Shown here one piece after another: positions 13,301 through 57,726 of a stretch of DNA of 64,000 nt. Within the stretch, counting starts at the first letter, position 1. Every line of letters begins with the position of its first letter. Position numbers and translations under genes: made by a program. Source of the stretch: Patescibacteria group bacterium (GTDB taxonomy: Bacteria > Patescibacteriota > Patescibacteriia > Magasanikbacterales > GWA2-37-8); contig JBAZNA010000001.1 in the NCBI GenBank assembly GCA_041649475.1, forward strand, positions 611,308 through 675,307. Reading direction: 5' to 3'. Under the pieces are notes generated by a model, which worked only from the letters and a program-made list of their open reading frames with translations, made no database searches and was not told the DNA's origin.

Positions 13301-13396
13301 TGCCAAAATTACCGCATACATAAAAATAGCCAAAAAAATGGCTGCGGCTTTTTGTTTTACATCTGTATAATCCTTAATCGGCTTAAAAGCAGTCAT
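7304..13396 (-). CDS. Giant cell-surface protein: signal-anchor, about 30 FG-GAP/VCBS repeats (integrin-alpha-like beta-propellers), three Ig/cadherin-like domains, Asn-rich linker, two C-terminal peptidoglycan-binding (PG_binding_1) domains
   Basis: 2030 aa. The repeat unit DFNxDGxxDLAVAN...VSVLLGxGDGTF recurs with a period of about 55 aa. Segments such as TVTITASDDSVATG resemble Ig/Calx-like modules. The C-terminus carries two LxxGxxGxDVKxLQxxL...GYFGxxTxxAVxxFQ peptidoglycan-binding modules. Confidence 0.85.
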   Translation of the reverse strand: MTAFKPIKDYTDVKQKAAAIFLAIFMYAVILASVGYVWAAAEVFKTRDDITLGSGIGYITTIASGDFNGDGKIDVAVPFDDTDTLHIYLNQGDGTFLATSTSQSGEGTTGVIADDFNLDGYMDLATANRGAGNVSIFLGRGDGSFLAASNYSVVTYPWHLVSDDFNNDGYPDIAVPNLTQVTPSVSVLLNRGDGTFQSAVNYTLVGNPYYATTADFNGDNKVDLVVSTYTSSSVAVLLGNGDGTFNSSTYFIVNPYAKDVKTNDFNDDGKMDIAAASFVSNTVSILLGAGDGTFASSTDYLMGSAISVGSWGYYGSLLVADLNDDSEEDLLVGNENGSFDTRFGNGDGTFGSSTVYQLYGPVTAITRADFDNDGKNDLAVAVTQAYSYGNVSVLYNYGSGNFVLPHYVPEDGNLPMYLFYNDRQLINDDFNDDGNFDLAVANHGSNTVSVLLSTATGTFGLKTSFAVGTGPSSVASADFNGDNNIDLASANNDSNNVSVLLGVGDGTFGAASNYGAGTYPRSLTAADFNGDNKQDLATANKTSNNVSVFLGVGDGTFNAAVSYSASSSPYSITAGDFNGDGFTDLAVANYSSTNVTVLLGIGDGTFQSGISIPVSGSYYPRNITSSDLNNDGKIDLAASTVTNGSLSYIAVFLNGTPTGTFSASVNYTVTSTALYSLVAADFNNDGVNDLAVPSSKVNVLLNNGNGSFAPPTSYFVKTYSGPSYALYHGPLTAADFNHDGKVDLAAASERYGDPLVNILFNSYTSSSVTIAESGGSTVINEGGADTYSVVLDGQPTANVIVHVSPISSYISTDVSSLTFTSANWDTPQTVTITASDDSVATGRRFATIAHSVSSTDSRFEGFITQSIIGTYTDNDTAGVTLTQSGGSTNISENGLTDTYTVVLTSQPTANVNISVTASTTQVTTSLARLTFTSSNWNTPQTVMASAIDDALVEGNHTSAITHTATSTDVMYNNISVSSVTATITDNDTSGTTTSTVYGDFNGDGYQDLAISKGSSNIVSILLGVGDGTFGSAVNYNVSTSPKAIVLGYFNSDSYLDLAVANSGSDNISILLGVGNGTFGTATNYTVSSSPYSVTTGDFNVDGKTDLAVANYGSDNVSVLFGVGNGTFGSVTNYSVNSKPISIISADFNSDNKNDLAVANFSSSTVSILLNSSVTGTFSAAVNYNIGDGTFPYSITTYDFNSDNLYDIVTANSASNTVSILLNSGSGTFTLQNTTYAVGASPRSITNYDLNGDGKRDLITSNYSANTISTLFGTGIGTFATSTAYSLGTKPLTVLTTDFSGDFWPDIVVADSSASSYSILIGNRGGLFSSSLFADPVAYDVDSYPVHTVAADFNEDGNTDLVVGSLLTGTLTVVLGNGDGSFSALGSVPMETYVGGMAVSDFNSDGHLDLAFANYTAGTVSVVFGNGDGTFRDLTPYGAASGGLWVTTADVNGDNKSDLIEGDFVGTDVYVLLNNGNGTFGSATNYTVGMGIVTVSAADLNSDGKIDLIAPSGMGSTVSVLLGNGNGTFGAATPYTVGAGPFYTATTDFNGDGYFDLAVANNNTLYDSSNPGTTVSILLNNGNGTFGSATNYTVGTSPTGIASEDFNEDGNEDLAVANIGSGGNGSVSVLLGLGNGTFGSATTYAIGGQVYWVTADDLNKDSKPDLAVVDFTGSLSILLNTHTTGAGVTVSQKASTNVWEDGMTDTFSIVLAAQPSASVIITVSAPTSTQMVFYPSTLTFTSTTWYTAQTVTMAANGSTFTGNHNVTISNTASSSDSGYEGIAIVSIPVTIHKNGGGGPSVVFPISSGSGAVLSTSSLSTSTLFNLFSTSTNQQNNNNSNTNLTTTTSTPITVVTSVLSDLSKLILSTVFGRNLYVGNIGYDVKILQNILSEIPGIYPQKLKTGYYGPLTKNAVKNYQTANTIASTTIGRFDTITRGYLTKTYQLPTSSPKYLFTRSLQLGSSGTDVKVLQTILAQNKAIYPEAKITGYFDSATKKAVQRFQLKYKITSPSIYGYGIFGPKTRAKIVEMMR

Positions 13397-31920: not shown

Positions 31921-33555
31921 TTATAAAGATAACTTCGCCGCTTTGATCAGACCGACAAACAACGGATGCGGCTCAAGCGGACGGGATTTAAACTCCGGAT
32001 GAAACTGACTGGCCACAAAATACGGGTGGTCCTTTAGTTCAATAATTTCAACCAGGTTAGCTTCCGGATTGACACCGGCGATTTGCATACCGGCTTTGGT
32101 CAATCTCTCGCGATAATCATTATTAAATTCATAACGATGACGGTGGCGTTCGCTCACAATCTTTTTGCCGCCATAGGCCTTAAAAACCCTAGTGCCCTTC
32201 ACCAAGACGCATTTGTACGCACCCAAGCGCATAGTGCCGCCGTAATGATTATTTTTTACGTTCTCCGCCTGCTTGTTATTTATATGAATAATCGGCTCCG
32301 GGGTCTTGGCATCTATTTCCGTGGTGTGCGCCCTGGCCAAACCCAAAACATTGCGCGCAAATTCAATGCTGGCCAGTTGCATGCCGTAGCATAACCCTAA
32401 AAACGGAATCTTGTGTTCTCTGACATATCTGATGGCCGAAATAATGCCTTCCACTCCGCGCGCGCCAAACCCGCCCGGCACAATCAGAGCATTATAAGAA
32501 CTCAACTCTTTTAGTTTGGCCGGATTCTTTTCATATTCCTCACTGTCAAGCCATGTTAGTTCCGGTTTCAGGCCATTATGCCAACAGGCGTGCTTAATTG
32601 CTTCAATTACCGAGATGTAGGAATCGGCTAAAGTAAAATTGCCGGTGCCAAAATATTTTCCCACCACCGCGATTTTTATAACCGTTTCCGCTTTTTTCAT
32701 TTTACGGATAAAGTCGCGCCATTTTTTTCCGTCTTTTGGTCTCGGTTTTAATTGTAATTTTTTTAAAAGCAAATTGCTGAAATTTTGTTTTTCAAATAAA
32801 TCCGGAATTTCATAAATGGTTTTTACATCCGGCGCGGCAATCACATCTTTTTCGCTGCGCAGACCGCAAAACAGGGCCAGCTTTTCCCGTCTGGGCTTGT
32901 CCAGCTCCAGCCGGCCACGGGCGATGATAAAATCGGCCTGAATACCGCTGCTGTTTAAGGTTCTGGCCGCGTACTGGGTCGGTTTGGTTTTCATTTCTCC
33001 CAAGTGCCCGGGAATCGGCAAATAACTGACCAGCACAAAAACCACATTGTCCGGTTCTTTAAGCTTCATCATGCGGGCGGCTTCCAAAAACAAAATATTT
33101 TGATATTCCCCGGCGGTGCCGCCGATTTCTATAATCATCACGTCGGCCTTGGCCTTTTTTGCCGCCGCCTTTATCCGGCCCACGACTTCCATGGGAATAT
33201 GCGGCACCACCTCCACGCACTTGCCTTTGTAATACATGCTCCGCTCTTTTTCAATCACGCTTAAATACACCCGGCCGGTGGTCATGTAATTTATTGAGTA
33301 AATGTTTGTGTCTAAAAATCGTTCGTAATTGCCCAGGTCCTGATCGGTCTCATCGCCGTCTTCGGTCACATAAACCTCGCCGTGTTCAATCGGATTCATC
33401 GTGCCGGCATCAACATTGATATACGGATCAATTTTTATGGCCGAAACATTAAGACCCTTATTTTTCAAAATTCTGCCGATTGACGCTGCTGATACCCCCT
33501 TGCCGACCCCGCTTAAAACTCCGCCTATGATAAAAATATACTTGGTTTTGGCCAT
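31921..33555 (-). CDS. pyrG: CTP synthase
   Basis: N-terminal synthetase domain (GGV.SG.GKG) and C-terminal GATase domain (GLCYGMQ). Confidence 0.95.
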   Translation of the reverse strand: MAKTKYIFIIGGVLSGVGKGVSAASIGRILKNKGLNVSAIKIDPYINVDAGTMNPIEHGEVYVTEDGDETDQDLGNYERFLDTNIYSINYMTTGRVYLSVIEKERSMYYKGKCVEVVPHIPMEVVGRIKAAAKKAKADVMIIEIGGTAGEYQNILFLEAARMMKLKEPDNVVFVLVSYLPIPGHLGEMKTKPTQYAARTLNSSGIQADFIIARGRLELDKPRREKLALFCGLRSEKDVIAAPDVKTIYEIPDLFEKQNFSNLLLKKLQLKPRPKDGKKWRDFIRKMKKAETVIKIAVVGKYFGTGNFTLADSYISVIEAIKHACWHNGLKPELTWLDSEEYEKNPAKLKELSSYNALIVPGGFGARGVEGIISAIRYVREHKIPFLGLCYGMQLASIEFARNVLGLARAHTTEIDAKTPEPIIHINNKQAENVKNNHYGGTMRLGAYKCVLVKGTRVFKAYGGKKIVSERHRHRYEFNNDYRERLTKAGMQIAGVNPEANLVEIIELKDHPYFVASQFHPEFKSRPLEPHPLFVGLIKAAKLSL

Positions 33556-45046: not shown

Positions 45047-45924
45047 TTATTTAGCAATTATTACTCTGGCGGGCCTAACTACCCTATCTCCCATTTTATA
45101 ACCGCCAGAAACCTCTTTCAAAATCGTGTCTGCGTCAACCTCTTCATTTTCTTCCTCGCCAACCGCTTCGTGATATTTCGGATCAAACTTTTCGCCCACA
45201 GTTTTTATTTCCTCCAAATTATGCGCTTTCAAAATATCTCCAAACTGCTTCATTATATGTCCAACTCCTTCTGACCATTGTTTCCAGCCATTTTCTTCAT
45301 TCATCTGCTCCCGGTGCGCAAACGCCTTTTTAAAATTTTCATAAACCGGTATGAATTCTTCCAAAATTTGCAGTTCGCTCATTTTCACCCACTCACCGCG
45401 TCTGGCCGCAATTTCATTCTGTAAATTTTTGTAATCGGCCAAAGCCCTCTGCCAACCCTTTTTATATTCTTCAGTTTCCAGCATTTTTTTATACATTTTT
45501 ACATTTTCTTTAATCGTCTCATGTATATCTTTCTTTTCCAGAATTTCATCCGGTGAAAGCCAAACTACTTCTGTCCCTTCCTCACCATCTAATTTAATTT
45601 CATTTTTATTTGATACTAGATCAACCAAATAATTTAAGGCAATAAAATGATCCTTACCATCTTTATAATCTTTATCATGAACAAGATCAAAAGCATTTAA
45701 CAGACGTGGGTTTTCCACAACTGCGCCGGTTTCTTCTTCAACTTCGCGGAGTAGTGCATCCTGAACTTTCTCTCCCCACTCCACATGTCCGCCTGGGATT
45801 GTTAATTTATTCTGCCATTTTGGGCTTTTCATTAAGAAAAATTTTCCATCCTGGCTAAGTATCATTGCCCCGGCCGATACCCATGGATATTTCTTTTCTT
45901 CTTTTTTATTTTGGTCATCTGACA
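45047..45924 (-). CDS. grpE: Nudix hydrolase-GrpE fusion protein (N-terminal Nudix domain, C-terminal GrpE nucleotide-exchange-factor domain)
   Basis: Nudix box GGHVEWGEKVQDALLREVEEETGA. C-terminal GrpE motifs: coiled coil, FDPKYHEAV, GYKMGDRVVRPARV. Occupies the grpE slot of the hrcA-grpE-dnaK-dnaJ operon. The true start is probably the ATG near 45924; the GTG at 45964 would sit inside repeat element C. Confidence 0.75.
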
Positions 45925-45935
45925 TATATTGTATA

Positions 45936-46002
45936 GGTAGATATTTATTAAGCATTTTGAGCACTAGCGATAGCTTGGCGAAAAATGCTTAATAAATATC
46001 TA
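45936..46002. repeat. Palindromic intergenic repeat element, copy C (core GAGCACTAGCGATAGCTTGGCG; divergent arms)
   Basis: Perfect 22-bp arms GTAGATATTTATTAAGCATTTT and AAAATGCTTAATAAATATCTAC flank the conserved core. Lies between hrcA and the Nudix-GrpE gene. Confidence 0.8.
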
Positions 46003-46800: not shown

Positions 46801-46857
46801 AAAAAAAGTCCCAACGAAACTCTGTCGGGACCGGACTGGGCGCCTCTATGAGCGCCC
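46801..46857 (-). terminator. Tandem hairpin rho-independent terminator downstream of the high-GC gene
   Basis: Hairpin GGGCGC-N8-GCGCCC sits right after the stop codon. It is followed by GTCCCGAC-N8-GTTGGGAC and a T7 run on the minus strand. Confidence 0.6.
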
Positions 46858-47538
46858 TTAGTTGTGCGGGGTACGCCGTCGGCGGCTGGCCGGGACGGAG
46901 ATCTCCAGCACCAGGGTGTTGGCGTTGATCTCCACGATCATACGCTTCTCCAGCTCATGCTGGCGGCGCTCCTCCTCCGGGAGCGATGCCGTGTAGAGCT
47001 CCTCTGCTGTCTTCTCATCCAAGGGGAGACCGGCCTGCTTCATCTCCGCGAACAGAACGGCTGCCTCCATGACCGTAACCGTGTTCTTGCCGGCCGCACC
47101 ACGACAGTAGCCGAAGCCGGCTTCCAAACTGTGGACCGGGTTGCTGGCCCGCTCACCGTTCTGGGTCATGACGTTGCCGTGCGGGTACTTGAACGGGCAG
47201 TTGGAACTGGAACAGGTCTGAAACTTGAACCGGGGCGTGATACCCTCCGTCGGAGGCGGTGCACAGCCCGCCATTCGCTCACAGACAGCGGCGAAGTCGG
47301 GCAGGAGTCCGGCGTCCCTCATCACGGCCTCCACCGCCGGCGCCTCATCGCTGGTGATCATTCCGCTCTTGATGGCCTTGTACAGAAACGCCTTGCCATC
47401 GGCCAGACAGATGACTGGATGGGGTTCAAGATCCTCATCCGTCACGAAACAACCGTAGGCAATACCGAGGATTTCCAAGAACAAGTCCTGGATACCCTTA
47501 AGGAACATCATAGACATGGTCGCCTCCCATTTCTCCAA
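46858..47538 (-). CDS. Hypothetical Cys-rich protein encoded in an abrupt high-GC (about 60%) segment; probable horizontally acquired gene
   Basis: 226-aa ORF with a diverse amino-acid composition and a strong SD (GGAGG) 6 nt upstream of the ATG. The antisense frame is also open, but its product is R/G/L-rich, typical of a high-GC antisense artefact. No family was recognised. Confidence 0.55.
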   Translation of the reverse strand: MEKWEATMSMMFLKGIQDLFLEILGIAYGCFVTDEDLEPHPVICLADGKAFLYKAIKSGMITSDEAPAVEAVMRDAGLLPDFAAVCERMAGCAPPPTEGITPRFKFQTCSSSNCPFKYPHGNVMTQNGERASNPVHSLEAGFGYCRGAAGKNTVTVMEAAVLFAEMKQAGLPLDEKTAEELYTASLPEEERRQHELEKRMIVEINANTLVLEISVPASRRRRTPHN

Positions 47539-47582
47539 AGTTGATAAGCTAAAAATACAGCTTTATACCAAAAATGTCAACA

Positions 47583-50853: not shown

Positions 50854-51121
50854 CTTGGGAATCGTTAATCTCGTTTTCAAGCTGATCACTTCCAAGCCGA
50901 CTACTGCGTTCTGGCGTAGAGGTTGAAACATGTTCGTTTTCAGATGTTGAAGTGGAAACACGTTCTCTTTCACTGTCATCGCCTTTTGCAGTCACACTAT
51001 ATTTTGGGTGATTCGCAGTCCCCGGCAAAGGCGTGGCCACTTTGGCCAACGACAGAACCGGCAAAAGAACAGACGCGCCCGCTAAAAGCGAAGCTGATGC
51101 ATACTTTATAATATTTTTCAT
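50846..51121 (-). CDS. Small secreted Ser/Thr/Glu-rich protein, hypothetical
   Basis: Signal peptide, then a low-complexity acidic region. Confidence 0.35.
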   Translation of the reverse strand: MKNIIKYASASLLAGASVLLPVLSLAKVATPLPGTANHPKYSVTAKGDDSERERVSTSTSENEHVSTSTPERSSRLGSDQLENEINDSQDD

Positions 51122-51192
51122 AAAATTAGTAATTAAATATAAAAATCATACCTACTTAGTAGGTTATCAGAGCATAAAAATATTGTCCAGTC

Positions 51193-51957
51193 CTATCTAA
51201 AAAATACGAGGAGTAAAATTACGGCGCCCAGGAACAGCCGGTACCAGAAAAAAACCGCGTATCCGCGCTTCTCCAAAAATCTCAATAAATATTTAATGGC
51301 CAAAAAACCGCTGATGGCTGAAGCCAAGATTCCGATCAGAAGCGGCGCATTAAAATCCGACTCAAATAAATGCGGCAATTTCACCAGAGCCGCGCCGGCG
51401 ATTATTGGCGTGGAAAGCAAAAATGAAAATCGGGCCGCGCTGATTTTGTTTAATTTTCTGGCCAAACCGGCAGTGATAGTGGCGCCTGACCTTGAGATAC
51501 CGGGAATAATAGCCAAAGTTTGGGCCAAACCAATCCAGATGGCATCTTTTAAATTCACTTCTTTAATATCTTTGCCATCTTTTGATTTTTTATCAACGAA
51601 GTATAAAACAATACCGGCCAAAATTAAAGTGCAGGCAATAATAATCGGCGACCGAAAAACAGTTTCAGCTTTGCTTTCCAGCAAGACCCCAAAAATCGCG
51701 CCCGGAATCGTGCCAATAACTAGCCACAGTAACATGCCATTTTTCCAATTTTTGAAAATATCTAACCAGTCCCTCCAAAAAAATGCCAGCACAGCCAATA
51801 ACGTGCCGACATGCAAGGCCACATCAAAAGATAGACCCGGATCAGGCCAATTAAAAAAATATGGAATTAAGATGAGGTGCGCTGTGGATGAGATCGGCAA
51901 AAATTCGCCAATCCCCTGCACCAGACCCAAAATTAGGGCTTGAAAAATGGTTAACAT
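51193..51957 (-). CDS. uppP: Undecaprenyl-diphosphatase UppP (BacA)
   Basis: Signature GLVQGIGEFLPISSTAH and a PGISRSG.TI motif. Confidence 0.9.
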   Translation of the reverse strand: MLTIFQALILGLVQGIGEFLPISSTAHLILIPYFFNWPDPGLSFDVALHVGTLLAVLAFFWRDWLDIFKNWKNGMLLWLVIGTIPGAIFGVLLESKAETVFRSPIIIACTLILAGIVLYFVDKKSKDGKDIKEVNLKDAIWIGLAQTLAIIPGISRSGATITAGLARKLNKISAARFSFLLSTPIIAGAALVKLPHLFESDFNAPLLIGILASAISGFLAIKYLLRFLEKRGYAVFFWYRLFLGAVILLLVFFR

Positions 51958-52049
51958 AAGAAATATTATAGACCCTTTTTATGATTCTTGCAAAAATGAT
52001 ATTGTTGTGTTAGTTTTAAGGCAAACCTTTACGTAAATGGAGGGAAGTC

Positions 52050-52691
52050 ATGACCCAGCGAGAGATCCTGGATCTGTTCGCGTCTCTGGGCGCCATCATA
52101 ACGGGCACCCACGTGGTGTACAAGTCACATAAGCACGGCAGTACCTATGTCAACAAGGACGCCATCTACCCCCACACCAGGGCGATTTCCGTCCTCTGCC
52201 GGAGGATCGCCAATGACTGCGCCTTGACCAAAGCGGGCATTGAAGTGGTGGTCGGCCCAGCCATGGGAGGCATCATCCTGTCCCAGTGGGTGGCCCACCA
52301 CCTCTCTACATTCGGCACAGATGAGGTCCTAGCCGTCTACGCCGAGAAGAATGGGGATGACTTCATCATCAAACGCGGCCAGGACAAGCTGCTCAAGGAC
52401 AAACGGGTCGTGGTGGTGGAGGACGTCCTGACCACCGGCGGATCGGTGAAGAAGGTGGTCCAGGCCGTGCGCGACTGCGGCGGACACGTGGACTGCGTCT
52501 TCGCCCTCTGCAACCGCGGCGGCGTGACCGCCAGCATGATCGACGCGCCCATCCTCTGCTCCCTGGTCAATGTCACCATGGACGCCTTCGACCCGGCGGA
52601 CTGCCCGCTCTGCCGCGGCCACGTGCCGATCAACACCGAGGTCGGTCACGGGGCCGAGTTCCTGGTCGCGCATCCCGAGATGAAATTCTAA
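52050..52691 (+). CDS. pyrE: Type I phosphoribosyltransferase, orotate phosphoribosyltransferase-like (high-GC island)
   Basis: PRPP-binding motif VVVVEDVLTTGGS. 213 aa, about 62% GC, with a strong SD (GGAGGG) before the ATG. Confidence 0.7.
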   Translation: MTQREILDLFASLGAIITGTHVVYKSHKHGSTYVNKDAIYPHTRAISVLCRRIANDCALTKAGIEVVVGPAMGGIILSQWVAHHLSTFGTDEVLAVYAEKNGDDFIIKRGQDKLLKDKRVVVVEDVLTTGGSVKKVVQAVRDCGGHVDCVFALCNRGGVTASMIDAPILCSLVNVTMDAFDPADCPLCRGHVPINTEVGHGAEFLVAHPEMKF

Positions 52692-52726
52692 CCCTGACAG
52701 GACCACACAACTGGAAGGAGAAGGCC

Positions 52727-53446
52727 ATGTCCGATAGGTGCAATCCCGCCAACGAGGCGGTTAACCCGATCGTGGTCGCGCTCGACGGCAAAAGCTGGGA
52801 TGAGATCCTGACGCTCATTCTCCAGCTCCGGACCACGGGCTGTATCCTCAAGGTCAACGACCTGCTCTTTGCCGAGGGCATCAACAACCTCCTGCCGAAG
52901 CTCTCGGCCCACGGCCGCGTGATGGCCGACCTCAAGTGCCACGACATCCCCAACACGGTGGAAAACACCGTCAAGCGCTTGCGGGCCTGCCCGCCCTGGG
53001 CAGTGACCATCCACGCTTCGGCCGGCATGGAGGCGCTCGAGTCGGCCGTCAAGGTGCTGGAGGACACCCCCACGAAGGTGCTGGCCATCACCGTGCTCAC
53101 CTCCATCGATCCGGTGGCCTGCCAGGAGATCTACAACCGCAACCCCCTGGATCAGATCCTGAACCTGGCGAACATCGCCAAGGAGGCCGGCGTCCACGGC
53201 TTTGTTTGCTCGCCGGAGGAGGTCGGGCAACTCAAGAGGGTGTACCCGAAGATGACCTACGTCGTGCCGGGCATCCGTTCGCCCGGCATCAACCCTGGCG
53301 ACCAGAAGCGTATCTCTACGCCCAAGGCCGCGATGGAGGCCGGCGCCAACCACATCGTGATGGGGCGCCAGATCCTGAACGCGCCGAACCCGGTGGAGGA
53401 GGTTCGCCGGGTACTCAAGGAGGAACTGAACATCGAACTGAAGTAG
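52727..53446 (+). CDS. pyrF: Orotidine-5'-phosphate decarboxylase (high-GC island)
   Basis: OMPdecase motifs: IVVALD, K in ILKVND, DLKCHDIPNTV, VPGIR, and a GANHIVMGR phosphate-binding loop. Confidence 0.85.
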   Translation: MSDRCNPANEAVNPIVVALDGKSWDEILTLILQLRTTGCILKVNDLLFAEGINNLLPKLSAHGRVMADLKCHDIPNTVENTVKRLRACPPWAVTIHASAGMEALESAVKVLEDTPTKVLAITVLTSIDPVACQEIYNRNPLDQILNLANIAKEAGVHGFVCSPEEVGQLKRVYPKMTYVVPGIRSPGINPGDQKRISTPKAAMEAGANHIVMGRQILNAPNPVEEVRRVLKEELNIELK

Positions 53447-53449
53447 TGA

Positions 53450-53488
53450 CGGGGGCACTCTGCGCCATCGCGGAGCCGCCCCTTTTTT
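53450..53488. terminator. GC-rich hairpin plus T6 terminator at the 3' boundary of the high-GC pyrEF island (between convergent genes)
   Basis: GGGGGCACTCTGCGCC...GCGGAGCCGCCCC followed by TTTTTT. Confidence 0.55.
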
Positions 53489-53505
53489 AATTTATTATAA
53501 AAATC

Positions 53506-54618
53506 TTATTTCCAAAAAACAAAATCAGCCGCTTTGTCTTCCGGCTCAACAAACCTTATCACTTTAATCATTTGGTCGCTGGTGATGGTCCAATCAATAC
53601 CTTTGCCGGCCGGAAAAACTAAACGATAGGGATCACCGGCATCCGTAAGGCAGTTTGGGCAGACCACCCGGCTATCTGTCTTAAAATTAATTTTTTCATT
53701 GTCCGTTTCAACTTTTGTAAATTGGATGTCTTTCTGGAGCGGTTCAAGCAATTGCAGATGATAAATATATTTCTTACTGGACGGATCAAAACGTGAAGTA
53801 AAATCACCCGCTTTGTTGTAGCGATCCACAAAAGTAAGCGACTGCTGTGTATAAACGAGAGGCAAATCCCCGCCGATCGCGATATTCACATTCTCCGTCC
53901 GGTCACGCAATCTTACTTTACCAAAAAACGGATAAACCAAAAGCGTTGCTGAAACAATAAATAAAGAAATGAAATAAAAAAAATTGCGCCAAACCGTGCT
54001 GGTTTTAAAATAGACAAAAATATTGCCTAAAACATTTCTAATCGCAAGAGAAATGAAAATAAGCGGGGCGATGCTAAAAAATGTTGATATTACATAAAAA
54101 TTAAAACCATTAAGCCGAATTTCTTTTAAACCGCGAAAAATTCCCCAATCAAGGGGCGGAATAGGAACAAAATAAATGCCAAGGGCAAAAATTAAAAAAA
54201 TAATATTGGCCACCGGATGATATTTTTTACCAAACCACAGGAACAAAACAAACACCGCAAAAAGAATAATTGTCGGGAGGGATAATATGTTTAAAAAAAG
54301 AGGAATAGTGGACAAAACCAGTAAAACCGCAAACAGCCGGTTAAAAACCATCTCCAACGTGGTTAAAGCAAACTGACTTTGCTTTGGCACCGTTACCGGT
54401 GTGACCACTTCCGGACGCGACTTCATTCTTTTGGAAATCGGCGCAAATATAGCCCACACAATTCCGGCCACAAAAATAAAAACGCAGATAAAAAAGATGA
54501 TGGCGGCAATTCCTTCCAACCCATTACCAGGAAAAATTGTTTTATTGGCTAAAACAAAAAAATCCAATAATAATAAAATTATTGAACCGATGATGAGATG
54601 AGAGGGGTGAATTTTCAT
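53506..54618 (-). CDS. Polytopic membrane protein with C-terminal extracytoplasmic domain, hypothetical
   Basis: About 8 TM helices over 250 aa, then a soluble C-terminal domain of about 120 aa. Confidence 0.4.
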   Translation of the reverse strand: MKIHPSHLIIGSIILLLLDFFVLANKTIFPGNGLEGIAAIIFFICVFIFVAGIVWAIFAPISKRMKSRPEVVTPVTVPKQSQFALTTLEMVFNRLFAVLLVLSTIPLFLNILSLPTIILFAVFVLFLWFGKKYHPVANIIFLIFALGIYFVPIPPLDWGIFRGLKEIRLNGFNFYVISTFFSIAPLIFISLAIRNVLGNIFVYFKTSTVWRNFFYFISLFIVSATLLVYPFFGKVRLRDRTENVNIAIGGDLPLVYTQQSLTFVDRYNKAGDFTSRFDPSSKKYIYHLQLLEPLQKDIQFTKVETDNEKINFKTDSRVVCPNCLTDAGDPYRLVFPAGKGIDWTITSDQMIKVIRFVEPEDKAADFVFWK

Positions 54619-54624
54619 AGTTTC

Positions 54625-54990
54625 CTAAACTTTTTGCAAAACCACTGACCGAAATTTGCAATCCACAATGGCTTTATACCCAAACTTGGTCAATAAATTA
54701 ATACCAGCCAAAGGTGAACTTTCGGAAATTAACACTTCAACATATTTTGTTTCTCCCTCCATTGCCGCAACTGCCAGAGCAACCGGCACGTCAACCACAT
54801 CACCATTGGCAATCTGCGTCTTGGTAACACCAGCAACTTTCACACCGAGTTCTTCGGCTATTTGGGGCGTCACTTGCAAATCTCCGGTAAATCCAGTGTC
54901 CAAAATAACAAAAGGAACTTGCACTGATCGTACCCAAGCCACGACCACTTTAATCCATGGCGTATTTTCAACAAACCCTCCTTTTATCAT
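54625..54990 (-). CDS. Retropepsin-like (clan AA) aspartic protease
   Basis: Catalytic motif ILDTGFTGDL within a 121-aa protein. Confidence 0.6.
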   Translation of the reverse strand: MIKGGFVENTPWIKVVVAWVRSVQVPFVILDTGFTGDLQVTPQIAEELGVKVAGVTKTQIANGDVVDVPVALAVAAMEGETKYVEVLISESSPLAGINLLTKFGYKAIVDCKFRSVVLQKV

Positions 54991-54993
54991 AAA

Positions 54994-55269
54994 TTATTTA
55001 TGCTTAAATGATCTGACCGTTGTTTCAGCAGAATCAAAACCTATTTTAACAACATAAAATACTTTATCAGGGTGATGCTCTCGCGCCAATCTTAACGCCT
55101 CAGCACTGGTTTCGCCCAAATATACACCCTTACTATCAATGTCAATGGCCAAAAATTTTCCACGTTCTTGGGGATCATATTTTACCTTGATCTGTTCATA
55201 AATTTTTTCTCCCTCATCAGCAATTTTCTGGATATCGGCTTTGTTAATGAACTCTTCATCGTTACTCAT
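54994..55269 (-). CDS. Small hypothetical protein (DUF5678-like), partner of the retropepsin-like gene
   Basis: 91 aa. Separated from the protease gene by 3 nt, so probably co-transcribed. Confidence 0.35.
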   Translation of the reverse strand: MSNDEEFINKADIQKIADEGEKIYEQIKVKYDPQERGKFLAIDIDSKGVYLGETSAEALRLAREHHPDKVFYVVKIGFDSAETTVRSFKHK

Positions 55270-55407
55270 AGATAGCTAGTTAAAAGGAAAATTATATAAT
55301 CAGTATATCATAAAGATTAAAAAAATGAATAATTTTATAATACTCCTAACGACCTTAGGAAAAGATAAATTTAGAGTAAAATTTTGATAAAAAGACCCCT
55401 GTTGGAT

Positions 55408-55493
55408 GCGGAAGGGGCGAGATTCGAACTCGCGATGGCTTGCGCCAAACCGCCTTTCCAGGGCGGCGCCATAGACCAACTAGGCGACCCTTC
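55408..55493 (-). tRNA. tRNA-Ser (anticodon GGA), class II with long variable arm; CCA not encoded
   Basis: Manual cloverleaf folding gives a 7-bp acceptor stem GGAAGGG/CCCTTCC. The D-loop carries GG. The 5-bp anticodon stem has loop CU-GGA-AA. The 15-nt variable arm has a 4-bp stem. The T-arm is GCGAG-TTCGAAT-CTCGC. Coordinates are ±2 nt. Confidence 0.9.
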
Positions 55494-55501
55494 CAGTTTG
55501 C

Positions 55502-56296
55502 CTAAACTTCGTAAGTAGCTGAAGTTTTCCGCTTAATCTTATGCCAAAACAAAGCCAAAGTCAACCCGATCACAACCGCAATCATCCCCCACTGCGCCGG
55601 AGTCAAATAAAAATACCGGACATCAGCGCCGGGCAAATCGCTGGCACGCAAAAAATCCAGAAAAAATCGCACCACCGCATAACCCAAAAAAGACAAACCA
55701 GCCGCCAAGCCCCAACGAATTTTTACCAATTTCTTAAACAGCACAAAGAAGATGATAAAAAGTCCAAATCCAAGTATAGAATCCATGAGTCCCAGATCAA
55801 ATCTGGCTCCGCCCGGATAATTCACAGCCAAAAAGAAATTTGTCAGCTTTCCCGGATGATCATTTATCATATAACAACCAATCCGGCCAATTCCCCACCC
55901 CAGCCACAAACTCACGGCCGCCACATCAAAATACGGCAGAAGTTCGCGCCAGGAAAATTTTTTTATTTTTGCAAAAATCCAAACTGCCATTAAGGCGCCC
56001 ACAAACCCGCCCAAAGAAGACGCTCCGCCATTCCAAAATTTTATAATCTCCGCCGGATGCAAAACATAATAATACGGCTCATAAAAAACTACATGAAAAA
56101 CGCGCGCCATAATAAACGCGCCAATCACTGCCCAAGTAGCCAAATCCAGCATCACCACTTCGGAAAGTATATACTTTTGCGACAACTTATACGCCAAAAT
56201 AATGGCCGCCACCAAACCCAAAGACACCCATAGTCCCCACACTTGTATAGGGACCGGGCCTAAATCAATTGTGCTGAAATGAAAATACGGAAGCAT
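55502..56296 (-). CDS. lgt: Prolipoprotein diacylglyceryl transferase
   Basis: Polytopic membrane protein with the Lgt signature region (GGASSLGGF.G...GRIGCY.N.). Confidence 0.85.
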   Translation of the reverse strand: MLPYFHFSTIDLGPVPIQVWGLWVSLGLVAAIILAYKLSQKYILSEVVMLDLATWAVIGAFIMARVFHVVFYEPYYYVLHPAEIIKFWNGGASSLGGFVGALMAVWIFAKIKKFSWRELLPYFDVAAVSLWLGWGIGRIGCYMINDHPGKLTNFFLAVNYPGGARFDLGLMDSILGFGLFIIFFVLFKKLVKIRWGLAAGLSFLGYAVVRFFLDFLRASDLPGADVRYFYLTPAQWGMIAVVIGLTLALFWHKIKRKTSATYEV

Positions 56297-56373: not shown

Positions 56374-57726
56374 CTACTTTTTTAAGTATGGCAAAATTTC
56401 GTCCGGCCGATTTATCAATCGCAAATAATCTTCATCCAATTGGGAAATGGTTTTATACTCCTGATGCAAATTATGAATAATATCCAAAAGCGGCTGCCAA
56501 AATTCCTGGCCATATAACAAGGTTGGTATCGGCGCAATTTTTTTGGTTTCCTGCAAAGTGAGCATTTCAAACAATTGATGCATTGTGCCGAATCCGCCCG
56601 GAAAAAACACAAACGCCTCGGAGGGCGCGGTGATAATTAATTTTCTCACAAACGGAAAGAAAAAACTGATTGATTTGGACAAATAACTATTTATTCGTTC
56701 TTTTCCTTCCACGCGCATGGTGATGCCGATGCTCTCTCCGTTTTTTTCAAATGCGCCCTTGTTAGCCGCTTCCATGATGCCCGGACCGCCGCCGGTCAAA
56801 GTTAAGTACTGATGCTGTGCTAAAAGTTTTCCCATCTCATAGGCCGCGTTGTAATAGGTCGTACCCGGCAAAATGCTTTTCGTTCCCAAAATAGTTACGT
56901 CGCGGGAAATTTTTGTCAAAAATTCAAAACCGTCAACCAGTTCGGCCATAATCCTGAAAATCCGCCAATCAAGTCCGCCCTGGCACAAGGGGCTATCATC
57001 CCCCACTTTACAAAAATTGGAGCGATCAGAAGATGTTTTAATTATTTCAAAGGCCTCTTCGGCAGTGCCAACAATATGCCACTTATCCAGATCAGCTTCG
57101 TTTATGGCGTGTATTTCTTTGGAGGATTTATTCCGCAAAAAATCAACCACCGGCTGCCAAAACTCGCGGCCGACTAAAACCACGGGCACTTTTTCCATAT
57201 GCCCCATTTCCATAGAATCAACCACTTCAAAAAATTCATCAAACGTGCCGAATCCGCCCGGAAAAAACACGAAAGCATTGGCCGGCGACGTCAGCATCAC
57301 CTTGCGGGTGAAGAAATAATAAAGAGCGATTGATTTTTTTACGTAAGGGTTAACCCGCTGTTCCAGCGGCAGTTGGATATTTAAGCCGACTGATTCGCCG
57401 CCGGCTTCAAACGCACCTTTGTTGGCCGCTTCCATGATGCCCGGACCGCCGCCGGTAATGGTGGTAAATCCGTTCTTGCCCAACAACTTTCCCAGCTCTT
57501 CCGCAATTTTGTAATATTTATTATTGCTCGGGATGCGGGCCGAACCCAAAATGGTAACCTCTTTGGAAAAGCCGGCCAAAAATTGATAACCTTCCACAAA
57601 CTCGGTCATGACTTTAAAAATTCTCCAGCTGTCGCGGTAGTTGACCACTTCACCGGCAGTGGCAATAGGAGGGGCCAGAAGCGCCGGAACCGCGTTTTTT
57701 TCTTTGGTAGCTTTGGGCATAAACAA
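56374..57726 (-). CDS. Tandem-duplicated LOG family protein (two cytokinin riboside 5'-monophosphate phosphoribohydrolase / TIGR00730 domains in one polypeptide)
   Basis: Two copies of the PGGxGTxxE and GGGPGIMEAANKGA motifs. Identical 32-nt and 26-nt segments recur exactly 660 nt apart (near 56765 and 57425, and near 56585 and 57245). Confidence 0.75.
   Translation of the reverse strand: MFMPKATKEKNAVPALLAPPIATAGEVVNYRDSWRIFKVMTEFVEGYQFLAGFSKEVTILGSARIPSNNKYYKIAEELGKLLGKNGFTTITGGGPGIMEAANKGAFEAGGESVGLNIQLPLEQRVNPYVKKSIALYYFFTRKVMLTSPANAFVFFPGGFGTFDEFFEVVDSMEMGHMEKVPVVLVGREFWQPVVDFLRNKSSKEIHAINEADLDKWHIVGTAEEAFEIIKTSSDRSNFCKVGDDSPLCQGGLDWRIFRIMAELVDGFEFLTKISRDVTILGTKSILPGTTYYNAAYEMGKLLAQHQYLTLTGGGPGIMEAANKGAFEKNGESIGITMRVEGKERINSYLSKSISFFFPFVRKLIITAPSEAFVFFPGGFGTMHQLFEMLTLQETKKIAPIPTLLYGQEFWQPLLDIIHNLHQEYKTISQLDEDYLRLINRPDEILPYLKK

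Follow-up and report, generated by a model that had tools for sequence, protein, structure and literature searches.

The pyrE–pyrF operon of the analysed DNA (the window, a stretch of 64,000 nucleotides from a Patescibacteria group bacterium) was probably built in at least three steps and not as one block: a GC-rich gene encoding orotate phosphoribosyltransferase (OPRT) fused to OMP decarboxylase (OMPDC) was resident at the locus, its OPRT half was lost, and an unrelated pyrE cassette was added. Judging from the sequences of the two products, the operon most likely serves, in a CPR bacterium, to make OMP from orotate and PRPP, and UMP from OMP. Each gene is preceded by its own RBS, and the operon ends with a GC-rich intrinsic terminator. 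In the preliminary description the same DNA was regarded as a single module recently acquired from a high-GC donor; the foreign composition and the assignment to the last two steps of UMP synthesis have held, whereas the recent date, the single module, and, for pyrF, the donor outside the lineage have not. The features of the window referred to here are as follows.

31921..33555, minus strand: pyrG, coding for CTP synthase (PF06418, 336 bits, and PF00117)
46805..47540, minus strand: a second GC-rich single-gene cassette (RBS, 219-aa ORF from 47517 to 46858, hairpins, T7)
51193..51957, minus strand: uppP, coding for undecaprenyl-diphosphatase; the native left flank, used as the internal clock in the rate comparisons
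51958..52028, no strand assigned: AT-rich native spacer, likely with divergent promoters for uppP and the pyr operon
52029..52714, plus strand: pyrE cassette of 686 bp (own RBS, predicted OPRT CDS 52050-52691, 23-nt tail)
52715..53446, plus strand: pyrF with its RBS GGAAGGAGAAGG (CDS 52727-53446), OMP decarboxylase according to family profiles
53451..53489, plus strand: GC-rich intrinsic terminator, the operon end and the right edge of the island
53506..55269, minus strand: the rest of the variable interval, three ORFs of host-like composition
53506-54618, minus strand: a membrane ORF of 370 aa, multi-pass and without a family match
55408-55494, minus strand: tRNA-Ser(GGA) (ARAGORN; Rfam, 56.8 bits), the far boundary of the variable interval

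The G+C content of the island (52035-53490) is 62.6%, compared with 43.5% in the rest of the window, and its composition is foreign to the host genome. In 200-nt windows the G+C value rises from 0.40 to 0.52-0.68 at ca. 52040 and returns to 0.42-0.45 at ca. 53490, while GC3 reaches 0.855 in pyrE (z = 6.1) and 0.900 in pyrF (z = 6.8) versus 0.463 ± 0.064 in the 57 other ORFs. The 5' edge coincides with the RBS GGAGGGAAG ahead of the ATG at 52050, and the 3' edge with the T-run (U6 in the transcript) behind the terminator hairpin of -22.5 kcal/mol (z = -2.7). The earlier claims of a GC-rich island and of sharp edges at the pyrE RBS and the terminator are borne out. Long ORFs are indeed present in most frames, although not in all six across the island, as had been stated. 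Nor is such DNA confined to this site, since the second GC-rich cassette contains an ORF (46858-47538) with a G+C content of 60% and a GC3 of 0.78. Its architecture is like that of the island, with two GC-rich hairpins and a T7 run, and ORFs of 226 aa are open on both strands at 46858-47538. Its 219-aa ORF has no Pfam match at E <= 1 and no viral relatives in IMG/VR, and in L032, a syntenic relative, band7 and hrcA have no counterpart of the cassette between them.

The terminator hairpin with its T-run is homologous in the related loci L027 and L031, the latter ending with a CCCC-T6-A tail as in the window; past the T-run each species has unrelated DNA. No structured RNA regulator was found at the island, the tRNA being the sole element in the Rfam scan. 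Two AT-rich copies of a 31-nt direct repeat, 71% identical, stand on either side of the island at 51973-52003 and 53480-53510; the repeat runs into the T-run of the terminator and could be fortuitous.

PyrF passes the curated thresholds for full-length membership in the OMP decarboxylase families: it scores 194.4 bits with NF001273 (cut-off 193), 158.1 bits with TIGR01740 (cut-off 92.3), and 148.7 bits with PF00215 (cut-off 27, E 3e-43, residues 14-228). Its segments ADLKCHDIPNT, ILKVND, VVPGIRS, and VMGRQI line up with the same residues of the solved OMPDC 3ldv; we take the OMPDC motifs DxKxxD, the KVG/KVN lysine, the PGIR loop, and GRxI to be catalytic or phosphate-binding, and the product is predicted to have OMP decarboxylase activity. 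The gene appears to be a "beheaded" derivative of a Patescibacteria-specific fused OPRT-OMPDC gene: the methionine at which it starts corresponds in alignments to the linker Met of fused homologues of 415-438 aa, and the wider PyrF clade comprises single polypeptides of ca. 415-455 aa in which an N-terminal OPRT-like PRTase domain precedes the OMPDC. OPRT models match the N-terminal domain of these CPR fusions weakly: it scores 59.9 bits, against a cut-off of 208, with NF010382, and 39.9 bits, against a cut-off of 656, with NF004034, the NCBIfam model for bacterial bifunctional UMP synthase; the CPR fusion therefore lies outside the curated bifunctional family. A derivation of the pyrF RBS from linker codons of the fusion was also considered, but the alignment is suggestive at best and no claim is made.

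All relatives of PyrF at 55% identity or more come from Patescibacteria MAGs, except for two that are doubtfully labelled ("Planctomycetota" and "bacterium"), and non-CPR sequences reach at most 43%, which contradicts the proposed high-GC donor outside the lineage. The maximum found among 5.8 billion proteins is 84%, in the sister species. The refutation envisaged in the preliminary description, best hits from the same lineage with similar G+C, holds by half: the best matches do come from the same lineage, and several of them are GC-rich islets inside low-GC genomes. Solitary beheaded pyrF genes with no adjacent pyrE are present in other lineages too (L003, L006/L008). The Hainich copy, L008, nests within the group from the uppP locus yet sits at a different locus, implying at least one relocation or transfer within the subclade. 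No PyrF relatives were found in IMG/VR, and a phage or plasmid vector was rejected, phage pyrF being at most 39% and plasmid pyrE at most 28% identical.

PyrE matches PF00156, and its top-scoring family, 70 bits ahead of TIGR00336, is TIGR01367 (pyrE_Therm), with 128.8 bits, under the cut-off of 150.25; residues 6-195 cover model positions 2-182 of 187. The PRPP-binding motif VVVVEDVLTTGGS is present, with E124, D125, T129, G130, and S132 invariant in 43 homologues, and the family profile detects the OPRT 4paw with an E of 5e-21. A single-sequence AF2 model was unusable (pLDDT 41), and one built from the alignment (pLDDT 92.5) was used instead; in a Foldseek search of the PDB its ranks 1-17 are all OPRTs, and an APRT first appears at rank 18. 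According to the profiles and the model, PyrE would be an OPRT of the Thermus/Helicobacter type with a type-I PRTase fold, OPRT-like rather than a purine or uracil PRTase, and OPRT activity of the window product is predicted. Together with the assignment of PyrF, this agrees with the earlier statement that the two genes encode consecutive steps of UMP synthesis, the last two.

pyrE is nevertheless unrelated to the OPRT domain lost from the ancestor of pyrF, having the PRPP motif alone in common with the N-terminal domain of the fused gene (E 0.26). The sister-species loci L026, L027, and L028 match the window as far as 52028 and again from 52715, pyrE being missing there, and an imperfect repeat, CAAACCT / CACAACT, is found at the two junctions. 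The notion of one module is contradicted by this separate 686-bp indel and by an origin unlike that of pyrF. The four nearest relatives of PyrE (60-63% identical, 63% being the database maximum) all lie within pyrF–pyrE operons, their pyrF partners belonging to another clade, 34-36% identical to the window PyrF. Three of the four are on contigs with 54-63% G+C, and L029 is a GC-rich islet in a Magasanikbacteria locus of 45.6% G+C; the G+C content of the window pyrE is 0.62. A gene of this type adjoins pyrF in the window, L029, L030, L037/L038, and L039, the upstream ORF of L039 being called PyrF from 70% identity to the L029 PyrF and not from a family match. In the window, pyrE and pyrF are not fused: 35 nt separate the two ORFs, and there is a second RBS. 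A remnant of a donor pyrF tail was sought in the 21 nt upstream of pyrE, and nothing recognisable was found.

uppP is well assigned (PF02673, 268 bits; TIGR00753, 220.3 bits versus a cut-off of 217.5) and has a GC3 of 0.48. In L026, L034, and L035, whose UppP is 92.5% identical to that of the window, uppP adjoins a 239-aa pyrF with no pyrE there; in L031 (UppP 83% identical) it adjoins a full 438-aa OPRT-OMPDC fusion with a GC3 of 0.85; in L032 (78%), which shares synteny with the window, an unrelated gene occupies the position of pyrF. The sister-species evidence comes from short contigs (1.3-4.6 kb) with few genes. At the orthologous site in relatives pyrF is thus not absent (L026 and L031 species), while pyrE is, in the sister species. 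A GC-rich pyrF or fused UMPS has been resident beside uppP through at least two speciation events, and its presence there in three species, at uppP dS values of 0.87 to ca. 2.4, is at odds with the recent acquisition proposed before.

The following history would account for these data. A GC-rich, CPR-specific fused OPRT-OMPDC gene (UMP-synthase-like, ca. 435 aa) would have settled beside uppP before the window species, L026, and L031 split, and either after the split of L032 or earlier with a loss in L032. The common ancestor of the window species and L026 would then have lost the OPRT half, the OMPDC starting at the linker Met. Finally, in the window lineage, a 686-bp unrelated pyrE cassette, of a type usual in pyrF–pyrE operons of mid- to high-GC genomes, would have come to lie precisely where the promoter spacer meets the pyrF RBS, restoring the two-step pathway; this last step may have been an insertion in the window lineage, or an ancestral pyrE may have been deleted in L026.

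The long residence of pyrF is supported by its divergence. In three species pairs dN is 0.106, 0.201, and 0.213 for pyrF and 0.043, 0.091, and 0.089 for uppP; the topology is identical and the ratio of dN values is ca. 2 in both genes. pyrF is therefore not a recent arrival, given this co-divergence with uppP (congruent trees, proportional dN). The corresponding dS values are 0.87, 2.36, and 2.44 for uppP, and 0.29, 0.45, and 0.46 for pyrF, whose GC3 stays at 0.84-0.90 while synonymous sites of uppP are saturated. pyrF shows a deficit of W<->S changes at four-fold sites (Fisher P = 7e-5, 2e-6, and 1e-3; with four flank genes pooled for comparison, P = 7e-4), such GC-changing substitutions being 2-3 times rarer than in host genes, while four-fold G<->C changes per site are equal to those of uppP and not depleted (small counts, 8 vs 4-10). 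For amelioration to have been neutral since the latest split, the ancestral GC4 would have had to be at least 0.98. Polarised third-position changes in pyrF comprise 21 GC>AT and 3 AT>GC, so that the gene is losing G+C and is not at equilibrium. With the flank of four pooled genes, an age of the pyrF allele of about half that of the flank is not rejected (P = 0.07), and one flank gene has a dS of merely 0.40. An independent syntenic pair, L015/L019, gives a weak signal (dS of 0.46 for UMPS vs 0.59-1.47; four-fold W<->S of 0.24 for UMPS vs 0.27). Compared with the sister species, the 5' third of pyrF is 93% identical and the remainder ca. 83%; dS is uniform along the gene (pS 0.21 vs 0.27, not significant), so a recombination mosaic inside pyrF was ruled out, and the drop in identity reflects a burst of amino-acid replacement localised to codons 121-160.

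pyrF is thus foreign in composition yet long resident. Its GC3 of ca. 0.9 is decaying slowly, most likely as a result of GC-to-AT changes reaching fixation at under half the host neutral rate; the cause, selection on composition or biased gene conversion, is the least certain part of this account. The same G+C excess recurs over the clade, the GC3 excess being one-sided in 13 of 16 independent loci of the pyrF/UMPS group. It may tentatively be proposed, although we hold it rather doubtful, that the Patescibacteria UMPS/pyrF family is kept at a GC3 of ca. 0.85-0.9 in hosts of ca. 0.35-0.5 by a gene-specific force that suppresses GC-to-AT fixation, and has been so for a time exceeding that in which neighbouring genes saturate at synonymous sites; the force would be strong biased gene conversion or else selection for composition, in the DNA or the mRNA, of pyrF/UMPS. 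If so, the island would represent a stable compositional state and not a transient scar of transfer, and the excess in the 13 loci would be the same phenomenon.

The AT-rich spacer between uppP and pyrE matches L026 in 68 of 71 nt, exceeding the conservation of the coding flank (ca. 85%). It contains sigma-70-like hexamers on both strands (plus, TTGAAA-18-TATTAT; minus, TTGCAA-17-TATAAT), and the pyr operon is probably transcribed from this spacer, shared with the divergent uppP. On the other side of the island, the variable interval includes, besides the 370-aa ORF, ORFs of 121 aa (weak retropepsin-like match) and 91 aa (weak DUF5678 match); in L027 the genes of 53506..55269 are not present 3' of pyrF. 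A search for an empty site by means of the 370-aa ORF failed, since its relatives (64% identical; L024 and L025) lie in unrelated, non-syntenic contexts and are uninformative on the island. Variable gene content in the tRNA-bounded interval is evident: between uppP and tRNA-Ser there are five genes in the window and seven unrelated ones in syntenic L032, whose homology picks up again exactly at window position 55407. The tRNA-Ser to which the preliminary description drew attention is thus the far boundary of a variable interval, but its role as an integration site, or as the anchor of an integrative island, was rejected: no integrase family match was found among the ORFs of 51958-55407, nor any repeat of the tRNA 3' end within 50900-55600. 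An integron cassette, an idea prompted by the position of the new cassette closest to the promoter, was dismissed as well; the junctions, inspected by eye, have no GTTRRRY core sites and intI is not nearby.

An abrupt G+C switch in a MAG is a classic warning sign of a chimera made in assembly or binning, a low-GC contig having been joined to high-GC DNA of another organism. Here the probability of such an artefact is negligible: the sequence is 100% identical over both junctions in an NCBI MAG contig of 963 kb, an ENA MEGAHIT contig of 633 kb, and a Logan contig, identity to the window is 100% throughout the loci of 20.7 kb and 8.7 kb from the two assemblies other than its own, and orthologous uppP–pyrF junctions are seen in two further species, in six or more other sequencing runs. 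The island is not an assembly artefact, since its junctions are common to three assemblies and orthologous in sister species; moreover, one falls at an RBS and the other at a terminator, and the spacer upstream is conserved as well. That a donor of high G+C outside the lineage recently supplied pyrE and pyrF together, as a single module still unameliorated for lack of time, is very improbable too, even though the sharp jump at the cassette boundaries, GC3 z-scores of 6-7, the variable tRNA-bounded interval, and the prevalence of GC>AT changes, predicted by amelioration in progress, would all agree with it. It conflicts with the residence of pyrF or its fused ancestor at one locus in three species in step with a saturated uppP, with the different origin of pyrE and its absence from the sister species, with database maxima as low as 63% for PyrE and, in the sister species, 84% for PyrF, and with the exclusively patescibacterial close relatives of PyrF; under neutral decay since the splits, the ancestral GC4 would have to be ca. 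1 or more.

Two alternatives keep the locus old. In one, which we consider unlikely, the pyrF/UMPS allele was overwritten repeatedly by recombination with a GC-rich shared pool, e.g. through natural competence in Patescibacteria, so that the gene is younger than its flanks and composition-preserving selection is not needed. Such refreshment would explain why pyrF dS is 2-5 times below that of flanking genes in every comparison and why the GC-rich state ends at the gene edges, as expected if homology is gene-confined; the allele at another locus, L008, shows that the gene moves, and the half-age estimate is compatible with it. Yet pyrF dN scales with uppP dN in all three pairs with the same topology, four-fold G<->C rates equal those of host genes, no mosaic blocks are seen, and the structural states (fused, beheaded, beheaded with pyrE) are species-specific and kept; a GC-rich donor with a close allele was not found among the proteins searched. 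The other alternative concerns the last step: the foreign pyrE would have replaced the OPRT half in the common ancestor of the window species and L026, the latter deleting pyrE later between short repeats. This reversed direction is a serious possibility, though less likely than not. It would avoid an intermediate having OMPDC without OPRT, requires as many events as the insertion, and agrees with the bracketing 7-nt imperfect repeat, of which L026 keeps one copy; the solitary beheaded pyrF genes elsewhere argue against it, since they imply that the OPRT-less state is tolerated or compensated elsewhere, and nonsynonymous change is equal in the two lineages (17 polarised changes at codon positions 1 and 2 in the window vs 16 in L026), giving no sign of relaxed constraint in L026 pyrF after loss of a partner. 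With either direction of the pyrE indel, stepwise assembly of the operon around a resident pyrF is the reading we favour.

The general view is that Patescibacteria do not synthesise nucleotides themselves and are host-dependent (PMC12455944). No paper linking Patescibacteria, CPR, or Saccharibacteria with orotate or OPRT was found in the literature search, and the relevant paper on horizontal gene transfer does not mention pyr genes. pyrG, with a G+C content of 0.46 and a GC3 of 0.53, is host-like, in agreement with its earlier description as native, and is the native downstream consumer of the UMP-derived pool. The conserved and repeatedly rebuilt orotate-to-UMP module suggests that some Patescibacteria scavenge orotate, beside or instead of nucleosides, which would narrow what the host or the environment must provide. 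The locus appears to record the splitting of a fused enzyme and the replacement of its lost half by an unrelated gene in the same operon position. It also calls for caution, as a sharp GC island is not in itself evidence of recent transfer, the anomaly here being older than two speciation events. If a GC-retaining force on one gene is real, this would be a tractable case for distinguishing composition selection from biased gene conversion in bacteria.

Horizontally acquired genes undergoing amelioration are described by the model of Lawrence and Ochman (1997), as cited in PMC12455944. The island resembles its expectations in the confinement of atypical composition to the cassette, the variable tRNA-bounded interval, and the net third-position GC>AT drift. 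It differs in that its composition outlasts synonymous saturation of the neighbouring gene, that four-fold GC changes are 2-3 times rarer than in host genes instead of commoner, and that neither an integrase nor att repeats, both searched for, accompany it.

In animal UMPS the OPRT domain is N-terminal and the OMPDC domain C-terminal. The wider clade of PyrF, single chains of OPRT-like and OMPDC domains, has the same order, and the orthologous locus L031 holds a full-length member. The window gene is unlike bifunctional UMP synthase in being unfused, with OMPDC alone from the linker Met, and the CPR fusions in matching OPRT models weakly with their N-terminal domain. PyrE, in turn, shares the C-terminal CPLC motif with the Thermus and Helicobacter OPRTs (4paw, HP1257), its predicted fold is closest to 4paw (TM 0.77-0.83) with 15 other OPRT chains next, it aligns over its full length to the TIGR01367 model, and its four nearest relatives always adjoin pyrF. 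It nevertheless scores under the equivalog cut-off and is at most 63% identical to any database sequence; moreover, its relatives lie downstream of a pyrF of the other clade, whereas the window pyrE lies upstream of the apparently fusion-derived pyrF. Taken as a whole, the locus is reminiscent of gene fission with xenologous displacement, from which it may differ in the order of events (an insertion, or a replacement followed by loss in L026); the likeness lies in the apparent loss of a domain of a fused enzyme and the presumed supply of the same step by an independent gene in the same operon position.

The GC-rich segment at 52035-53490 is a composite, largely old pyrimidine locus, in which a beheaded UMP-synthase gene of Patescibacteria (CPR) is combined with a xenologous pyrE. 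Its foreign look is real, yet the segment is not the single recent module seen in it by the preliminary description. The G+C content is 62.6% against 43.5% in the remaining window, and the borders are as sharp as described, with a jump at the pyrE RBS and a drop after the pyrF terminator: in 200-nt windows the value climbs from about 0.40 to 0.52-0.68 near 52040 and returns to 0.42-0.45 near 53490. The 5' edge is the RBS GGAGGGAAG before the ATG at 52050, and the 3' edge is the T-run behind a hairpin of -22.5 kcal/mol. The G+C content at third codon positions (GC3) is 0.855 in pyrE (z = 6.1) and 0.900 in pyrF (z = 6.8), versus 0.463 +/- 0.064 in the 57 other ORFs of the window. The surroundings, also correctly described as uppP and a membrane-protein gene with a tRNA-Ser nearby and a native pyrG, are as follows.

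31921-33555: pyrG, of native composition
51193-51957, minus strand: uppP, left flank of the island
52050-52691: pyrE
52727-53446: pyrF
53506-54618, minus strand: membrane ORF of 370 aa, no family match
55408-55494: tRNA-Ser(GGA), on the far side of the interval to the right of the island

The claim that the anomaly is unique in the window was wrong, as a second GC-rich ORF runs from 47517 to 46858 on the minus strand. This ORF (219 aa, GC 0.60, GC3 0.78, no Pfam match) is part of a cassette at 46805-47540 (minus strand) of the same build as the pyr island, with an RBS, two GC-rich hairpins, and a T7 run, situated between band7 and hrcA and missing in the syntenic relative L032. Other features of the window are GrpE with an N-terminal NUDIX domain (302-305 aa), encoded at 45047-45964 (minus strand), its L032 counterpart being plain and 171 aa long, and an ORF of 2030 aa at 7304-13396 (minus strand) with an odd codon-position profile (GC2 of 0.47 exceeding GC3 of 0.41).

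An assembly artefact is ruled out by identical junctions in other assemblies and by orthologous ones in two more species. The identical PyrF protein is found on three records (a 963-kb contig of an NCBI Patescibacteria MAG, a 633-kb ENA MEGAHIT contig, and a Logan contig); loci of 20.7 kb and 8.7 kb from two other assemblies match the window at 100% identity through both junctions, and orthologues of the uppP–pyrF junction occur in contigs of at least six further sequencing runs, from the two additional species.

The product of pyrF is predicted to be OMP decarboxylase (OMPDC); it matches PF00215 (E 3e-43) and NF001273 (194.4, cut-off 193), and its motifs DxKxxD, PGIR, and GRxI line up with solved OMPDC enzymes. 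pyrE codes for a predicted type-I phosphoribosyltransferase. Its best family is TIGR01367, the Thermus-type model of orotate phosphoribosyltransferase (OPRT), with 128.8 bits, under the cut-off of 150.25; a profile of 43 homologues matches the OPRT structure 4paw (E 5e-21), the best 17 PDB matches of its alignment-based AlphaFold model (pLDDT 92.5) are OPRTs without exception, and a pyrF gene adjoins pyrE in all four of its nearest relatives. PyrE is therefore treated as a probable OPRT, though not as a certified member of the TIGR01367 equivalog family.

Relatives of PyrF with at least 55% identity come from MAGs of Patescibacteria (Yanofsky-, Jorgensen-, Moranii-, Buchanan-, and Paceibacteria; two of the records carry doubtful labels), while identity to non-CPR sequences reaches 43% at most, which does not agree with the high-GC donor proposed initially. 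Most members of the PyrF clade, at 415-455 aa, are UMP-synthase-like (UMPS) fusions of a weakly OPRT-like N-terminal domain and OMPDC. The start of the window PyrF, M-S-D-R-C, aligns with the conserved linker M-Q-K/R-C of the fusions, and since it lies exactly at the linker Met, the gene is regarded as a beheaded fusion. Solitary beheaded pyrF genes without an adjacent pyrE, starting at a different linker position, are present in other Patescibacteria (L003 and L006/L007/L008; the L003 copy has a host-like GC3 of 0.39, in contrast to the others), so the OPRT–OMPDC fusion was probably split more than once across the group.

The history of the locus was followed through UppP in progressively more remote relatives.

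Sister species (L026, L027, L028, L034, L035), UppP 92.5%: GC-rich pyrF of 239 aa adjoining uppP, without pyrE
L031, UppP 83%: full fused gene of 438 aa adjoining uppP, GC 0.617, GC3 0.85, flanks of about 0.38 GC
L032/L033, UppP 78%: unrelated gene adjoining uppP, the rest syntenic from gatA to dnaK

The fused gene of L031 occupies the same position as the island, divergent from uppP, and in the sister species an 85-nt spacer separates uppP from the facing pyrF. This series places the GC-rich gene at the site before the split of the window, sister, and L031 species, and the loss of the OPRT half of the fusion in the common ancestor of the former two. All three species have homologous terminator hairpins and T-runs, and the sequence past the T-run is different in each of them. 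The entire uppP-to-tRNA-Ser interval (51958-55407 in the window, 3149-10000 in L032) is a replacement hotspot, with five genes in the window and seven unrelated ones in L032 (ABC ATPase, GIY-YIG, spermine synthase, VTT, a coiled-coil ORF of 441 aa that matches no family, and two more). Adjacent small ORFs at 54625-55269 (minus strand), one of 121 aa and weakly retropepsin-like (Asp_protease_2, E 1.3e-3), the other of 91 aa with a weak match to DUF5678, may form a two-gene accessory unit. Downstream of the sister pyrF, in the slot taken in the window by the 370-aa membrane ORF, lies a convergent partial ORF (L027, 1340-1602, minus strand) of GC 0.55-0.63, alanine- and histidine-rich (...AHAAGHAVATWHVPTHALGA...), which suggests that such GC-rich accessory genes are a repeated feature of the lineage.

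pyrE is distinct from the rest of the island. Sister-species DNA runs collinear with the window as far as 52028 (85.5% identity) and again from 52715 (86.9%), the 686 bp at 52029-52714 being an indel flanked by the imperfect repeat CAAACCT/CACAACT, which would reflect either insertion in the window lineage or deletion in the sister lineage. PyrE and the N-terminal domain of the fusions share solely the PRPP loop (E 0.26). The nearest relatives of PyrE (60-63% identity) are all encoded in pyrF–pyrE operons, and the PyrF of these is from another clade, with 34-36% identity to the window PyrF; the window operon thus joins the OPRT of one module type to the OMPDC of another, and the xenologous pyrE would substitute for the lost half of the fusion. 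Acquisition of pyrE–pyrF as one module, as first assumed, does not fit these different origins. Three of the four relatives lie in contigs of 54-63% GC and the fourth in a GC-rich islet of a 45.6% GC Magasanikbacteria locus. This fourth, independent islet (L029, 5269-6642, Candidatus Magasanikbacteria, GCA_016207245.1; GC 0.53-0.61 versus 0.33-0.47 in the flanks) is adjoined by a ParE-like toxin gene, and as its pyrF–pyrE operon represents the other module type, the GC-rich pyr islets of Patescibacteria span more than one gene family.

The trees of pyrF and uppP agree, ((window, L026), L031), and so does the scaling of dN, the ratio being about 2 for either gene.

Divergence of pyrF and uppP, and GC-changing (W<->S) differences at four-fold sites
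Window – L026: dN 0.106 and 0.043; dS 0.29 and 0.87; W<->S 14/116 and 34/97 (Fisher P = 7e-5)
Window – L031: dN 0.201 and 0.091; dS 0.45 and 2.36; W<->S 16/103 and 40/83 (P = 2e-6)
L026 – L031: dN 0.213 and 0.089; dS 0.46 and 2.44; W<->S 25/107 and 40/88 (P = 1e-3)

Proportional dN points to vertical co-inheritance of the two genes. With pyrF or its fused form at the uppP locus in three species and uppP dS reaching 2.44, the recent acquisition originally claimed is untenable for pyrF, which appears to have stayed GC-rich across at least two speciations. Its GC3 holds at 0.84-0.90 though synonymous sites of uppP reach saturation; neutral decay at host rates since the latest split would need an ancestral GC4 (four-fold sites) of 0.98-1.04. 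With L031 as outgroup, third-position changes number 21 GC>AT and 3 AT>GC in pyrF (18 and 35 in uppP), hence pyrF is losing GC, though slowly. In 20 loci of the UMPS/pyrF clade the GC3 excess over flanking genes ranges up to 0.49, with no locus clearly below its flanks; with related loci collapsed, the excess is positive in 13 of 16 (binomial P = 0.011, mean 0.15), and in the subclade of the window (four species, two loci) all members have GC3 of 0.84-0.91.

There are two candidate explanations of this persistence. A gene-specific brake on GC-to-AT fixation accords with the 2-3-fold lower frequency of W<->S differences in pyrF relative to uppP, at indistinguishable rates of G<->C differences per GC site (0.076/0.068, 0.152/0.214, and 0.141/0.186), both comparisons resting on small counts; the deficit persists against four pooled flank genes of the sister species (dS 0.40-1.04, P = 7e-4). 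Periodic overwriting by GC-rich alleles is kept in play, as a pyrF allele about half as old as the pooled flanks gives P = 0.07, the four-fold deficit is just slight in a second syntenic pair (L015/L019, UMPS dS 0.46 versus 0.59-1.47), and the Hainich copy (L006/L008), nested in the uppP-locus group, is yet located after rplT, so the gene moved at least once. A recombination mosaic within pyrF is ruled out by uniform dS along the gene. Amino-acid changes between the window and sister PyrF cluster in codons 121-160 (pN 0.285 versus 0.00-0.10 elsewhere, local pS 0.38), a pattern pointing to positive or relaxed selection in this part of the protein.

The operon is most likely transcribed from a putative promoter in the conserved AT-rich spacer common with uppP, in which 68 of 71 nt are identical to the sister species and sigma-70-like hexamers occur on both strands; each gene is preceded by an RBS, and no terminator was found between them. 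Predicted PyrE and PyrF would convert orotate and PRPP to UMP, feeding the native pyrG route. The 64-kb window holds no pyr genes besides pyrE, pyrF, and pyrG, and Patescibacteria have been reported to lack nucleotide biosynthesis (PMC12455944), therefore orotate salvage is the most economical reading of the window genes. A 450-aa protein with two tandem LOG/TIGR00730 domains (lysine-decarboxylase-like, nucleotide phosphoribohydrolase), encoded at 56374-57726 (minus strand) and 87% identical in L032, may also be relevant to nucleotide salvage. No integrase, att repeat or known RNA element was found at the locus, and no vector relatives among phage, plasmid or viral-contig sequences. The island belongs among horizontally derived metabolic genes.
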